The notes under the pieces are model-generated. The model searched no databases. It saw only the letters and a list, made by a program, of their open reading frames with translations, and was not told the origin of the DNA. 41,036 nucleotides of DNA from the NCBI GenBank assembly GCA_035563395.1, contig DATMVH010000250.1, positions 1 to 41,036 on the forward strand, in the 5' to 3' direction. Shown one piece after another: positions 6,747 to 10,801 of the stretch (position 1 is its first letter; each line of letters starts with the position of its first letter). A program made the position numbers and the translations under genes. Origin of the DNA: Solirubrobacteraceae bacterium. GTDB lineage: Bacteria; Actinomycetota; Thermoleophilia; Solirubrobacterales; Solirubrobacteraceae.

Positions 6747-7079
6747 ATGGGACTCGCGAGCGTTCCGTTCTCCCTGCTGAGCGCGGCCGCCGCGCCGCGC
6801 TCCGGGCCGCCCCTGTGGCGGCAGCTCTTCGACGCGGTCGAGCGCCCGCTCGCCACCGCGTCCGAGGCGTGGGTCCAGACCGAGACCTTCATGGACGCGC
6901 TGGCGGTGACCTACCGGGCGCAGCGGCGCGTCACCTCGGAGCTCGCGCGCGCCGTCCAGGGCTCCGCGCGCCTGTGGGGGATGCCGACGCGCGACGACGT
7001 CACCGCGCTCGTCAACCAGGTCGCCGGCCTCGAGCGCAAGGTGCGCGAGCTCGAGCTCCAGCTCGAACGGGAGCGGTGA
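6747..7079 (+). CDS. small PhaE/PhaR-like PHA synthase partner (coiled-coil)
   Basis: 110 aa. It starts 1 nt after the SDR stop, and its stop overlaps the phaC ATG (TGATG). The C-terminal MPTRDDVTALVNQVAGLERKVRELELQLE resembles the conserved PhaE/PhaR helix. Confidence 0.55.
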   Translation: MGLASVPFSLLSAAAAPRSGPPLWRQLFDAVERPLATASEAWVQTETFMDALAVTYRAQRRVTSELARAVQGSARLWGMPTRDDVTALVNQVAGLERKVRELELQLERER

Positions 7080-8197
7080 TGGCGCCGAACCTGCTCGAGC
7101 GCCAGGTGCTGCGCGCCCGCAACGGGCTGGCGTACCTGGCGGGCGCGAAGGAGCCGGACGTCGCGCAGACCCCGCGCGTGCTCGTGTGGAAGCGCGACAA
7201 GGCGCGCCTGTGGCGCTACCGCAGCGAGGAGCGCCGCCACCGCCCGCCGGTCCTCATCGTCCACAGCCTCGTCAGCAAGAGCTACATCCTCGACCTGCTG
7301 CCCGGCAACAGCATGATCGCCTTCCTGCTCCGCGAGGGCTTCGACGTCTTCCTCCTCGACTGGGTCCCCGCGGACCCGGCCGACGCCGAGAACACGCTCG
7401 AGACCTACGTCGAGCACTACATCCCGAAGGCGATCGCCGCGACGCTCGACGAAGCCGACGCGGACGGCGTGACGCTCATCGGCTACTGCTTCGCCGGCGT
7501 CCTGACGCTGCTCCTGACGGCGGGGCAGCGCGACGTGCCGGTCCGGAACCTCGTCACGCTCACGACGCCGTGCGACTACGCGCAGATGGGCTTCATGAGC
7601 AAGATGTTCCTGCCCGGGCGCCTGAACCCCGACGACGTGATCGACGAGACCGGCCTCGTGCCGGCCACGGTGATGGACGAGGGCTTCCAGTCGCTCAAGC
7701 CGACGGATCAGATCGTCCAGCAGGTCAACCTGTTCCAGAACCTCTGGAACGACCAGTGGCTCGAGGGCTACCTCGCCATGAACCGCTGGGCACGCGACCA
7801 GGTCGCGTTCCCCGGCGCCGCGTTCCGCCAGACCGTCGACGTCCTGATCCGGCGCAACGCGCTCGCCGCCGGCGTCGTCCCGTTCGGGCGGGGCGAGGTG
7901 CGCCTGGCGGACATCGCCTGCCCGTACCTGAACGTGTTCTGCAAGCACGACACGATCGTGCCGGCACCGTCCTCGGTACCGCTGACCGCGCTCGTGGGGT
8001 CGAGCGACGCGACGGAGCTGCGCCTTGACTCCGGCCACGTGGGCCTGGTGGCCGGGCGGCAGGCGGCGAGGGTGGCGCAGCCCCAGATCGCCGGCTGGAT
8101 CCGCGGCCACAGCGACGGCAGCGCGACGGGTGCCGGGACGCCGGCGGCCGCCCGCCCGCGGTCGCGCTCGAACGGCAGGGCGGCGACGAGCCGCTGA
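7079..8197 (+). CDS. phaC: class III-type poly(3-hydroxyalkanoate) synthase PhaC
   Basis: 372 aa alpha/beta-hydrolase fold. Lipase-box-like GYCFAG carries the catalytic Cys, followed downstream by Asp (CKHDTIVP) and His (DSGHVGL). The size fits class III/IV PhaC. Confidence 0.85.
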   Translation: MAPNLLERQVLRARNGLAYLAGAKEPDVAQTPRVLVWKRDKARLWRYRSEERRHRPPVLIVHSLVSKSYILDLLPGNSMIAFLLREGFDVFLLDWVPADPADAENTLETYVEHYIPKAIAATLDEADADGVTLIGYCFAGVLTLLLTAGQRDVPVRNLVTLTTPCDYAQMGFMSKMFLPGRLNPDDVIDETGLVPATVMDEGFQSLKPTDQIVQQVNLFQNLWNDQWLEGYLAMNRWARDQVAFPGAAFRQTVDVLIRRNALAAGVVPFGRGEVRLADIACPYLNVFCKHDTIVPAPSSVPLTALVGSSDATELRLDSGHVGLVAGRQAARVAQPQIAGWIRGHSDGSATGAGTPAAARPRSRSNGRAATSR

Positions 8198-8266
8198 ACC
8201 TGGCCGCTGCCGCTCCTCGAACGGGGCTACGACGCGAGCCGGAAGCTCGATCACGTCGCACGGGCG

Positions 8267-8761
8267 GTGCGCGAGGCGCGCCGAGCCGAGGGCATATCGC
8301 AGAGCGAGCTCGCGCGGCGGGCGCGGATCTCCGCGAGCGTCGTCAGCCGTCTCGAGTCCGAGAAGGTGCTCTTCCCGGGACCGCACACGCTCGAGAAGAT
8401 CGCCATCGCGCTCGGGCGCTCGGGGACCGTCCTCGTCAACCTCTCCTCGGGCGCCGACGCCTGCATCAGCGAGCTCGGGCATCTCGACCTGCCGGTGCTG
8501 AAGGAAGCCGCGATCGAGAAGGAGCTGTTCGACACCGGTCGCGCGGACGAAGCGTGGGACCCCACCGATCCCGATGAGCCGGAGCCCGAGCTCTGGGAGC
8601 TCCCGGTCCTCGACTACTTCGTCACCACGAAGGCCACTGACGCGCTCGTGCCCGACGACGTCGATCCGGAGATCCGGACGGCCGTCGCCGAGTTCCTCGA
8701 CACGTGGCGGTCCATCACCGACGAGCGGCGGGAGATGCTGCTGCAGTACATGCGGGATTAG
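8267..8761 (+). CDS. XRE-family helix-turn-helix protein with acidic C-terminal domain
   Basis: N-terminal GISQSELARRARISASVVSRLESEK is a classic HTH_3 motif. The C-terminal ~100 aa are acidic and match no family I recognise. The frame is open back to 8198 but has no ATG/GTG/TTG before 8267. Confidence 0.75.
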   Translation: MREARRAEGISQSELARRARISASVVSRLESEKVLFPGPHTLEKIAIALGRSGTVLVNLSSGADACISELGHLDLPVLKEAAIEKELFDTGRADEAWDPTDPDEPEPELWELPVLDYFVTTKATDALVPDDVDPEIRTAVAEFLDTWRSITDERREMLLQYMRD

Positions 8762-8835
8762 AAGGTGGTGGGCTCTCGGTGGAGCTCGCCGGCGGACGCA
8801 GACGCGCGCCACGACTCGACGGAAGCAGGCGCGTG

Positions 8836-9290
8836 ATGGTCGCTGCGGGGGTCCTCGAGGCCCGTCTCGCAGGGACCGCCGGCACCGTGCGGGTGATGCT
8901 GACCCCGCACGCCCGCGAGCGCTACATCGAACGGCTCCATCCAGGCGCCGATGCGGCGACGGTCACCGACGAGATCGCCCGCCTGTTCGGCATGGGCGTC
9001 GTCGAGCCGCGGCCGGCGTCATGGGACACGACCGTGCGCCCGGCGCTGCTGTACCTGACCGTCGGCGACGTGTCGTTCGTGCTCGATGTCGACCGCCACC
9101 GGCGCGACGAGCTTGTCGTCGTGACGTGCGTGGTGCGCTCGATGCGGTCCCGAGGTCGGGGTTCGCGCACGGTGCGGCGCCGCCCGCAGGACGTGCGACG
9201 GCCGGCCTACCGGCGGCCGAGCCCGGATCGCTCGCGCTCGACCTCTCCATGGACCGATCGATCCTGGACGAACAGCGGTGGGCGGCGTGA
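8836..9290 (+). CDS. small toxin-like protein (weak DUF4258-like pattern), reading frame interrupted
   Basis: ATG 8836 follows GGAAGCAGG. Frame 1 has about 90 percent GC3 through ~9130 (LTPHARERYIERL ... LLYLTVGDVSFVLDV ... ELVVVTCVV) but has no stop until 9630. A different frame ends at TGA 9288-9290, which overlaps the next gene's GTG. A -1 shift between ~9130 and ~9240 is needed. Alternative starts are GTG 8887 and ATG 8896. Confidence 0.4.
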
Positions 9291-10801
9291 GCGCGAAGCG
9301 CAGCATCCCCATCACGCCGATCATGCGCCGCTACCGGCGGCTCCGTCGCGCGCATCAGGCGGCGCGGCTGGCGGAAGCTCGCCGTCTGCTCGCCGACCCG
9401 AACGAGCTGGCCGCAGAGTTCGCGGCGAGCGTCGCGCACTTCTCCCCCTACGACAACCGCCGCGAGCCCTTCTATCCCCCGGACCGCGCAGTCCGCGCCC
9501 CGGGCGACGGGATCGCCCAGACCAACGACTTGGTGCTCCGAATCGAGCGCCAGCGACGGATCGTTCCGGTCGACGCGGCGGCCCGGATCGAGGAGCACGA
9601 CGCCGGTCCCGCGGTCAAGATCCTCGGTGACACGGATCCGTTCTTCGCGCTCGTCCAGGCTCTCGCCTGCGCCGCGCACCTCGCCACCCCGAACCAGTAC
9701 GAGCGGATGCGCCGTCACCTCTACCGCGGCGCGTTTCCGACGCTGCCCGATGGGCCGCGGCTCGACATCGCCATCCTGCTCTACGACGGCCACCGAACCG
9801 GGCAGCCGAGCGCAGGCGCCTACATGGGCGAGCTCACGGCGACGGCCGGGGCCCTCGGGCCCAAGCTGCTCGCGCAGGACACGCTCGGCGCGTCCGTCAG
9901 GCGGATCTCGGCGATCGGCATCGGCCTCGACGGCTCGGGCCGGCTCGACGCCGAGGTGCGGTGGGCCTGGGAACGCCGACTCGCCGGCGACGACAACGCA
10001 TCGGCGGAGCGGGACGGAGAGCGGCGGACGGCCATCCCGATCTTCAACGATCGCGCCGTCCGCGTCCGGACGATGGCCGACTGGCAGCGGCTCGCGCCGC
10101 CGGCGTCGGAGAGCCACTGGCGCGAACACCCCTCCGCGATGGAGCTCGCACGGGCGTGGATCGAGAAGGACCCCGCCCGCCGGATCGAGGCGCTCCTGGC
10201 GGGCCGGCCGCGGCTCGCCGGCGTCAGGCTCGAGCGGGCGATCGCCGAGCGCAAGACGTTCTTCGACGATATCCGGAGCGGGCCACGCAACCACGACCTG
10301 CTCGTGCACGCGCGCTCGGACGCGGGGCCCGTCGTGATCGGGGTCGAGGCGAAGGTCGACGAGAGCTTCGACCGCGACCTCGTGAGCTGGCGGGAGGCCG
10401 CCATCCGGCGCCAGCCGGCGACCCGCGCACCCGAGCGCCTCGACCGGCTGACGCGCGCGTTCTTCGGCGTGACCCTCGACGGGGATCCGCAGCTCGGGCC
10501 GTTGCGCTACCAGCTGCTCGCCGCACCGGCAGGGACGCTCGCCGAGGCCAGGGAGGCGTCGGCGGCCGCTGCGGTGCTCCTCGTGCACGAGTTCGTGACT
10601 CCCGCGGCCGACCCGCGCAACCGTGCCCGCAACGGCGCCGACCTCGACCGGTTCCTCGCACGCCTCGGCGGCGGCGAGCGCACCGGGCACGACGACGGAT
10701 GGCTCGCCGGCCCGTTCCGGGTCCCCGGCAACGGGCATCTGCCGGGCACCATCCCCGTCTACGTCGGCAAGCTGGTCAGCCACACCGCGAGCCCGGCTTG
10801 A
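9287..10801 (+). CDS. ~500-aa uncharacterised protein with a C-terminal PD-(D/E)xK-like nuclease core
   Basis: Frame 2 has high GC3 from ~9290 onward. GTG 9287 overlaps the upstream TGA (GTGA); alternative starts are 9278 and 9323. The C-terminal half contains SAMELARAW, HDLLV...VIGVEAKVDESF (D..ExK) and LRYQLL...AVLLVHEF. The N-terminal ~270 aa have no motif I recognise. Confidence 0.7.
   Translation: MSAKRSIPITPIMRRYRRLRRAHQAARLAEARRLLADPNELAAEFAASVAHFSPYDNRREPFYPPDRAVRAPGDGIAQTNDLVLRIERQRRIVPVDAAARIEEHDAGPAVKILGDTDPFFALVQALACAAHLATPNQYERMRRHLYRGAFPTLPDGPRLDIAILLYDGHRTGQPSAGAYMGELTATAGALGPKLLAQDTLGASVRRISAIGIGLDGSGRLDAEVRWAWERRLAGDDNASAERDGERRTAIPIFNDRAVRVRTMADWQRLAPPASESHWREHPSAMELARAWIEKDPARRIEALLAGRPRLAGVRLERAIAERKTFFDDIRSGPRNHDLLVHARSDAGPVVIGVEAKVDESFDRDLVSWREAAIRRQPATRAPERLDRLTRAFFGVTLDGDPQLGPLRYQLLAAPAGTLAEAREASAAAAVLLVHEFVTPAADPRNRARNGADLDRFLARLGGGERTGHDDGWLAGPFRVPGNGHLPGTIPVYVGKLVSHTASPA

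Follow-up and report, generated by a model that had tools for sequence, protein, structure and literature searches.

What is a cassette of three genes without any metabolic signature doing between two metabolic operons of a Solirubrobacteraceae bacterium? The cassette occupies positions 8267–10801 on the + strand of contig DATMVH010000250.1 (assembly GCA_035563395.1), of which positions 1 to 41,036 were analyzed; this whole stretch of 41,036 nucleotides is referred to as the window. Its three co-directional open reading frames (ORFs) encode an XRE-family helix-turn-helix (HTH) protein (gene 1), one small basic protein (gene 2) and one large protein that carries a nuclease-like domain in its C-terminal half (gene 3). 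Based on the letters of the sequence, a first-pass annotation had likened these genes to toxin-antitoxin, abortive-infection or anti-phage modules. Our analysis indicates that the cassette represents a rare conserved operon of uncultured, apparently high-GC bacteria, and we hold the composition and the synteny of this three-gene operon with high confidence. As for its function, we tentatively read it as a toxin-antitoxin-like or defense-like module, in which one XRE regulator would control two nucleic acid-targeting effectors.

Conservation of the three-gene operon

Coding in all three genes is backed by third-position GC (GC3) frame plots. Together with the domain calls of the flanks, the ORFs agree with the first-pass description of three co-directional genes placed between operons for polyhydroxyalkanoate synthesis and for aromatic catabolism. 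That annotation had also made its proposal depend on synteny of the three genes in other genomes, and such synteny was found in several diverged contigs. The order HTH protein, gene 2 and DUF6946 (the Pfam domain of gene 3) recurs in at least four diverged metagenomic loci: L003; L006, L007 and L012 together with one 18-kb contig from the Joint Genome Institute (JGI); and L010. On L004 and on another JGI contig, at least the HTH protein followed by gene 2 is present before either the synteny breaks off or the contig runs out. The proteins of the syntenic copies are 41–61% identical to those of the window.

The genes of these copies show signs of translational coupling. The junctions are usually TGATG stop/start overlaps (L003, L006 and L010), which in L003 and L010 join the equivalents of genes 2 and 3. 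In P0077, the C-terminal domain of gene 1, gene 2 and the N-terminus of DUF6946 are all located in one ORF. DUF6946 is interrupted by one frameshift in L003 and by two frameshifts in L006, and these may be assembly errors.

Gene 1 encodes an XRE-family protein with an acidic C-terminal domain

Gene 1 (8267–8761, + strand) encodes a protein of 164 residues, which is composed of an XRE-family HTH (residues 1–55) and an acidic C-terminal domain (residues ~59–164). The HTH, already recognized in the first pass, was detected by Pfam as HTH_3 with an E value of 1.1e-9 (residues 1–54) and as HTH_31 with an E value of 4.3e-9. The acidic domain of ~100 residues that had been described behind it is also real: it is ~105 residues in length, its isoelectric point (pI) is 4.05, compared to 4.5 for the protein as a whole, and it is kept in the partner proteins. 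As partners we took the HTH proteins encoded 5′ of the gene 2 homologs in L003, L004, L006, L007 and L010, which are 41–49% identical to gene 1 over the full length. Judged from these alignments, the acidic C-terminal domain is family-specific and conserved among the partner HTH proteins.

At the N-terminus, the partners are 35–60 residues longer than gene 1. In the gene 1 frame at 8198–8266, similarity to helix 1 of the partners persists 5′ of the GTG at 8267 (LDHVARAV), and upstream of this GTG the frame contains no ATG, GTG or TTG before a stop codon. It seems that the N-terminal extension of gene 1 has been lost, right after the phaC stop codon. In PADLOC-DB v2.0.0, gene 1 matches solely via its generic HTH (HTH_VI, capH and RmrA). 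We regard the protein as a putative repressor and antitoxin-like neutralizer.

Gene 2 belongs to a family with a predicted RelE-like core

Gene 2 (8836–9290, + strand) encodes a small basic protein, which is 151 residues in length when intact and is frameshifted in the window. Its ATG at 8836 is located 74 nucleotides past gene 1, as had been noted; with the alternative start GTG 8779, the gap is 17 nucleotides. The HA-x-ER...VVTCV pattern, which had also been picked out from the single sequence, proved to be made of conserved family positions. Close relatives of gene 2 are rare, amounting to 11 proteins among 5.8 billion (P0066 and ten more). When 1.84 billion cluster representatives were scanned in full with HMMER, 378 clusters (defined at 50% identity) were retrieved at E ≤ 1e-3, 55 of which reached E ≤ 1e-10. 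The sampled relatives are mostly 100–160 residues in length and share the pattern HA.ER...ER..P...P.W...YL..GD...L.A.TC, which is followed by an Arg-rich tail.

The conserved positions in the family are H25, R29, R33, T97 and C98. In the AlphaFold2 model, the near-invariant H25 opens helix 1, R29 and R33 are located on the same helix, and T97 and C98 are on the last strand. The protein has a predicted BECR/RelE-like core (residues ~17–100) and, behind it, a tail rich in Arg; this tail, which contains the short conserved motif YRRPxPGxL, was modeled with low confidence and is probably disordered. When the model was compared with the Protein Data Bank (PDB) by Foldseek, toxins of the RelE/ParE superfamily filled nearly all the top 17 places, among them M. 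tuberculosis RelE1 and RelE2, T. thermophilus RelE, PrpT, ParE, HigB2 and CdiA-CT. The best match had a probability of 0.98, an E value of 0.029 and a template modeling (TM) score of 0.52. On this model, the gene 2 core weakly resembles toxins of the RelE/ParE/colicin type (BECR) best. Among viral models, the best Foldseek matches were small uncharacterized phage proteins; phrog_8252 also matched gene 2 weakly.

Other searches with gene 2 added little. PDB-sequence profile searches with both gene 2 profiles gave chance-level matches only, tblastn against the plasmid collection and the viral scans returned nothing, and Pfam detected no additional domains on the longer relatives. Scans with the gene 2 alignment identified one locus in the genome contigs and one in the metagenome contigs. 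The likeness to DUF4258-type toxin domains that the first-pass annotation had suggested holds, weakly, for the fold and the superfamily, where Foldseek finds the RelE/ParE toxins; at the family level it does not, and membership in DUF4258 was rejected since no match to its hidden Markov model (HMM) was obtained. A role of gene 2 as an acidic DNA-mimic nuclease inhibitor was rejected too, owing to its pI of 11.3.

One distant gene 2 relative of 163 residues is encoded by a Solirubrobacteraceae metagenome-assembled genome (L011:5324–6450). Its gene overlaps the stop codon of the preceding gene, which encodes a membrane-anchored homolog of staphylococcal nuclease (Pfam SNase, 9e-22). The gene 2 superfamily thereby has another nuclease partner, unrelated to the first.

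As sequenced in the window, the start frame of gene 2 has no stop codon before 9630, and the TGA of the GTGA tetranucleotide (9288–9290) is in another frame. An intact gene 2 is available from a JGI assembly: P0066 (151 residues, 99% identical) contains ...YRRPSPGSLALDLSMDRSILDEQRWAA, and the TGA of the GTGA is its stop codon. Compared to P0066, the GG at 9225–9226 is one G short, which places the frameshift site at 9220–9228 on the + strand (AGCCCGGAT), inside the conserved tail motif. Because the YRRPxPGxL of the relatives, which is also kept in P0068–P0073, is encoded by the post-shift frame, this frame is taken as the genuine gene 2 frame. The frameshift is either a true mutation or an assembly error; it is located within a run of G and is not seen in the JGI assembly, so that it may be the latter. 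The GTGA overlap between genes 2 and 3 reported in the first pass is therefore half right: the tetranucleotide is present at 9287–9290 (+ strand), where the start of gene 3 overlaps the stop that an intact gene 2 would use, but the gene 2 frame as sequenced never reaches its TGA.

Several members of the gene 2 superfamily (P0066, P0067, P0190 and P0214) have ...W-A-A as their C-terminal end. In the window, both the Shine-Dalgarno-like GGTGGG and the GTG with which gene 3 starts lie within the W-A-A codons at 9276–9290 (CGGTGGGCGGCGTGA). The W-A-A end could therefore reflect a ribosome-binding site embedded in these codons, or a tag at the C-terminus.

Gene 3 is a fusion of two nuclease-like families

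Gene 3 (9287–10801, + strand) encodes 504 residues from GTG 9287, the start that is also used by the NCBI record; its ORF is open from 9278 (507 residues). Three assemblies carry identical versions of genes 1 and 3. The pI of the gene 3 protein is 9.95, and its GC3 is 0.9–1.0 across the gene. The homologs of gene 3 fall into two sets, one covering residues 4–233 and the other covering residues 253–501; because these sets do not overlap, gene 3 is recognized as a two-part fusion.

The C-terminal half (10034–10798, + strand) is a DUF6946 (PF22187) domain of the PD-(D/E)XK clan. It was recognized by Pfam with 105.9 bits against a cut-off of 27 (E value 2.5e-30, residues 264–444 of the 507-residue ORF), and residues 253–501 are 52–66% identical to DUF6946 proteins. 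The motif NHD337LL...GVE354AK356 is intact, and its columns are invariant or nearly so across the homologs. By alignment, D337, E354 and K356 are encoded at 10295–10297, 10346–10348 and 10352–10354 of the + strand, respectively. These results confirm the C-terminal D...ExK nuclease-like core that had been proposed for gene 3.

DUF6946 was derived from AlphaFold ‘dark’ clusters, without known function, and was put in the PD-(D/E)XK clan CL0236 by the paper that created the family (PMC10584680). We found no functional study of DUF6946 in the literature; the sole functional mention found is a ‘HigB-1/DUF6946’ pair listed for Vibrio cholerae (PMC12654330). A PDB-sequence profile search with DUF6946 gave chance-level matches only, and nothing was returned by tblastn searches with DUF6946 against the plasmid collection or with the phage DUF6946 against the plasmid and phage collections. 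This phage protein is a stand-alone DUF6946 of 261 residues, with the motif GGPRNHDLL...GIEAKGNE, encoded by a low-GC siphophage contig (L014:5935–6720); its gene sits between tail-chaperone-like and tape-measure genes, a typical ‘moron’ position. Several DUF6946 proteins (L010:2216–3538, P0002, P0007 and that of L003) have a conserved C-terminal extension of ~180 residues with a CPCxC/CTCGC cysteine motif, and gene 3 of the window is without this extension.

The N-terminal half of gene 3 (9287–10030, + strand) had been described as an N-terminal domain of ~270 residues that matched nothing familiar. The domain is present, but it is not new. Residues 4–233 match about 55 stand-alone proteins of ~291 residues that have no Pfam domain (the 291-residue family, P0008–P0065). 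The identity is 37–49% in single BLAST alignments and higher in split ones, with E values down to 2e-79. The invariant pattern of the family consists of E126, D151 and E166-x-K168 (P0009 numbering). In gene 3, ~57 residues have been deleted in frame at the junction 9616/9617; the deletion takes the strands with the invariant D151 and E166, so the motif is lost from the N-terminal half, and all family-invariant residues beyond the deletion are kept. P0009, one intact member, was modeled by AlphaFold2 with a predicted local distance difference test (pLDDT) score of 93, and its strands 110–168 lie in the stretch that is deleted in gene 3.

Foldseek gave only weak matches for P0009, all of which are PD-(D/E)XK enzymes (SfsA, MunI, FAN1, FokI and HincII). 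The PDB-sequence profile search with the 291-residue family stayed at chance level, and both the tblastn search with P0009 against the plasmid collection and the viral scans returned nothing. The idea that the N-terminal half of gene 3 is a new functional domain was rejected, as it is a core-deleted remnant. In gene 3 of the window, a neighboring second nuclease-like gene has been absorbed, and its catalytic sheet is deleted.

The two families brought together in gene 3 are not detectably homologous to each other. A first hhalign match between them arose artificially, because the alignment included the fusion protein P0003; with P0003 removed, the probability was 0.5%, and homology was therefore rejected. 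P0003 itself (L013:1344–3053, 569 residues) has DUF6946 at the N-terminus and the 291-residue domain at the C-terminus, the reverse of the order in gene 3, with both cores intact; its neighbors encode a vWA-domain protein and an AAA/DUF5925 protein. The existence of two natural fusions in opposite orders argues for a functional link of DUF6946 and the 291-residue family.

The stand-alone genes of the 291-residue family are found in variable contexts, with integrase fragments, a uracil-DNA glycosylase (UDG)-like gene, a metallo-beta-lactamase fragment, NERD and AAA_14 as neighbors. At L001:5471–6876, the 291-residue gene lies beside a metallo-beta-lactamase C-terminal fragment with an overlap of 4 nucleotides, and NERD and AAA_14 are near; at L015:5395–7460, it lies beside the UDG-like gene. 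Phage-integrase fragments are near the 291-residue genes in both L001 and L015.

Proposed function and alternative explanations

Our preferred reading, to which we give a little less than an even chance, is that the cassette is a toxin-antitoxin-like or defense-like tripartite module with two nucleic acid-targeting effectors under a single XRE regulator. Gene 1 would repress the operon through its HTH. Its acidic C-terminal domain would bind and neutralize gene 2, which is basic, and possibly also DUF6946, the likewise basic nuclease. Loss or titration of the gene 1 protein, for example upon infection or stress, would set free the RNase activity of gene 2 and the DNase activity of DUF6946. The charges of the three partners are complementary: the gene 1 C-terminal domain has a pI of 4.05, whereas gene 2 (11.3) and gene 3 (9.95) are basic. 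We read the module as type II toxin-antitoxin-like because an acidic HTH protein is combined with basic partners, and because of the gene order, the coupling of the genes, the BECR-like protein, and the patchiness and decay of the module. The HTH-first order of the cassette is counted in favor of the model, as the order antitoxin-then-toxin is tabulated for DUF4258 and most RelE/ParE families (PMC11980606). So is the ‘HigB-1/DUF6946’ entry for Vibrio cholerae (PMC12654330), as an independent case of such a pairing. The patchy distribution and the frequent decay fit a selfish or defense element. Since gene 2 is frameshifted and the N-terminal catalytic sheet of gene 3 is deleted, the window copy may be partly decayed, with DUF6946 as its only intact effector. 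A more specific form of the model is a tripartite abortive-infection or addiction system, in which the acidic domain of the XRE protein restrains a BECR RNase and a DUF6946 DNase, and the YRRPxPGxL tail couples gene 2 to the nuclease; this form we consider unlikely.

Several observations weigh against the toxin-antitoxin-like model. For gene 2, the Foldseek matches are weak (E values of 0.03–0.1 and TM scores of about 0.5), and the core, although modeled with a pLDDT of ~90, was predicted from an alignment of 11 sequences only. Pfam has no model for gene 2, giving no hit at E ≤ 1 to DUF4258 or to toxin models, and no relevant family, DUF4258 included, was detected in 67 sampled superfamily members (E ≤ 0.1). 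The gene is broken by the frameshift in the window, and its distant relative in L011 sits 3′ of the SNase homolog, not of an HTH gene. Incomplete copies of the operon point in the same direction. L002 has an intact DUF6946 and a gene 1 without its HTH front, and gene 2 is gone; in L005, L008 and L009, gene 2 is fused to a degenerate gene 1 N-terminus and no DUF6946 is present. The gene 2 copies of L005, L008 and L009 have diverged faster than their flanks (68% versus 85–90% identity). Unless these copies are inactive, L002, L005 and L008 imply that neither effector is obviously lethal alone.

The surroundings of the cassette weigh against the model as well. It is placed between metabolic operons, its G+C content (~72–74%) is the same as that of the flanks (70–77% across the window), the window contains no tRNA, and no integrase was found adjoining the module; the defense-island setting that one might expect for such genes was not borne out for the window locus. 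In PADLOC-DB v2.0.0, gene 2, gene 3, P0009 and other DUF6946 proteins have no match. The absence of any ATPase, helicase, methylase or Cas component, as asserted in the first pass, was upheld by our analysis of the cassette.

Part of these data could be explained if genes 1 and 2 were an ordinary type II toxin-antitoxin pair and DUF6946 an independent co-transcribed cargo, such as a restriction-like or repair nuclease. DUF6946 indeed occurs without genes 1 and 2 in the phage moron position (L014), it is fused to the 291-residue family beside a vWA protein (L013), and genes 1 and 2 persist where DUF6946 appears broken (L003 and L006). However, the TGATG coupling extends to the gene 2/DUF6946 junction, and P0077 joins gene 2 and DUF6946 in frame. 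In addition, L002 retains the gene 1 C-terminal domain beside DUF6946 after the loss of gene 2, which hints at a link between gene 1 and DUF6946. We consider a passenger nuclease unlikely, but it keeps appreciable weight. The operon may also have nothing to do with toxins. Gene 2 would then be a basic protein that binds nucleic acid and assists nucleases as an accessory subunit or by conferring specificity, with gene 1 as a plain transcriptional regulator of DNA or RNA processing; this would suit the proximity of gene 2 relatives to two unrelated nucleases (DUF6946 and, in L011, the SNase homolog), the Arg-rich and probably disordered tail with its short conserved motif, and the survival of single-gene remnants. 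It is rather unlikely, because the conserved His and Arg positions of gene 2 match BECR active sites, the top structural neighbors are almost all toxins, and a conserved acidic domain on an HTH protein is typical of antitoxins.

The cassette of this genome might be nothing but a decaying, non-functional remnant, with gene 2 as a pseudogene, the N-terminal half of gene 3 gutted and the N-terminal extension of gene 1 lost. Besides the gene 2 frameshift and the 57-residue core deletion of gene 3, gene 1 is 35–60 residues shorter than its partners, with homology running 5′ of its sole start codon, and similar damage is seen at related loci. Nevertheless, no difference is seen between three assemblies in genes 1 and 3, GC3 is 0.9–1.0 throughout gene 3, the deletion has left all other family-invariant residues in place and the DUF6946 motif is intact; the frameshift, located in a G run and missing from the JGI assembly, may be an assembly error. 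Complete loss of function is quite improbable in our view. All three alternatives draw some weight from the reduced loci and from the SNase association.

Flanking genes and regulatory signals

On the left, the cassette is flanked by an AMP-ligase gene, a short-chain dehydrogenase/reductase gene and a gene for a PhaC-type alpha/beta hydrolase, which ends at 8197. On the right, it is followed by genes for a CMD-family protein, a flavin adenine dinucleotide (FAD)-dependent aromatic-ring hydroxylase and a catechol-type dioxygenase. Scans for promoters, terminators and inverted repeats gave no convincing candidate for an operator, a promoter or a terminator. That the cassette is a recently integrated prophage or island was rejected, because no tRNA and no adjoining integrase were found and its G+C content equals that of the flanks. 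Directly 5′ of the PhaC-like gene there is an ORF of 110 residues (6747–7079) without Pfam match, the position of which suggests a PhaE- or phasin-like partner.

Significance

Besides one DUF, the module comprises three elements without annotation, namely the gene 1 C-terminal domain, the gene 2 family and the 291-residue family. If the proposed function is true, it would provide the first functional context for DUF6946, a family that came from the AlphaFold ‘dark matter’ survey. It would also add a new BECR/RelE-like family of 378 clusters that current models miss. The scope is limited, as the system is rare, is known from uncultured organisms only and is damaged in the window copy. For testing, the L010 operon or the version with the intact P0066 gene 2 would be better than the window copy. 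To a specialist in toxin-antitoxin or defense systems, the module would not be very surprising.

Comparison with known systems

Like type II toxin-antitoxin systems of the XRE/HigA and RelE/ParE kind, the module combines acidic and basic partners, and its homologs have stop/start overlaps. Different from these systems, it has a third conserved gene, which encodes a predicted nuclease and is translationally coupled at the 3′ end; moreover, gene 2 fits no existing toxin model, and the gene 1 C-terminal domain has no known relative.

DUF4258 (PF14076) has been placed in the RelE/ParE (BECR) superfamily (PMC11980606). A preprint of 2026 reassigns it to the colicin-like BECR branch, whose members have the catalytic His in the pre-alpha element, which directly precedes the core helix, and more residues on the last strand, beta4 (bioRxiv 10.64898/2026.08.28.747851). 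In its predicted structure, gene 2 has a comparable active-site layout, with H25, R29, R33 and T97/C98 as the corresponding residues. Compared to DUF4258 and Ntox49, gene 2 has no HMM match and bears a long Arg-rich tail with YRRPxPGxL. What DUF4258 and gene 2 presumably have in common is an HA-x-x-R-type motif that opens the first helix. For gene 3, the C-terminal half is a clear member of the DUF6946 family, which differs from other members in that it is fused behind the core-deleted domain of another family.

Three-gene modules that contain a toxin-antitoxin pair or a BECR protein include paaR-paaA-parE and the toxin-antitoxin-chaperone systems. The ptuXYZ system also consists of three co-transcribed genes, with a BECR-fold protein and a nuclease-like partner (PMC11980606). 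The present module resembles all of them in having three co-transcribed genes, one of which encodes a predicted BECR-fold protein. It shares no homologous component with them and has no P-loop ATPase; its third gene encodes a predicted PD-(D/E)XK nuclease, where the other modules have a chaperone, an additional regulator or an ATPase. What is known in this module is the toxin-antitoxin-like architecture, and what is new is its arrangement with a coupled gene for a predicted PD-(D/E)XK nuclease, an arrangement that PADLOC-DB v2 does not contain.

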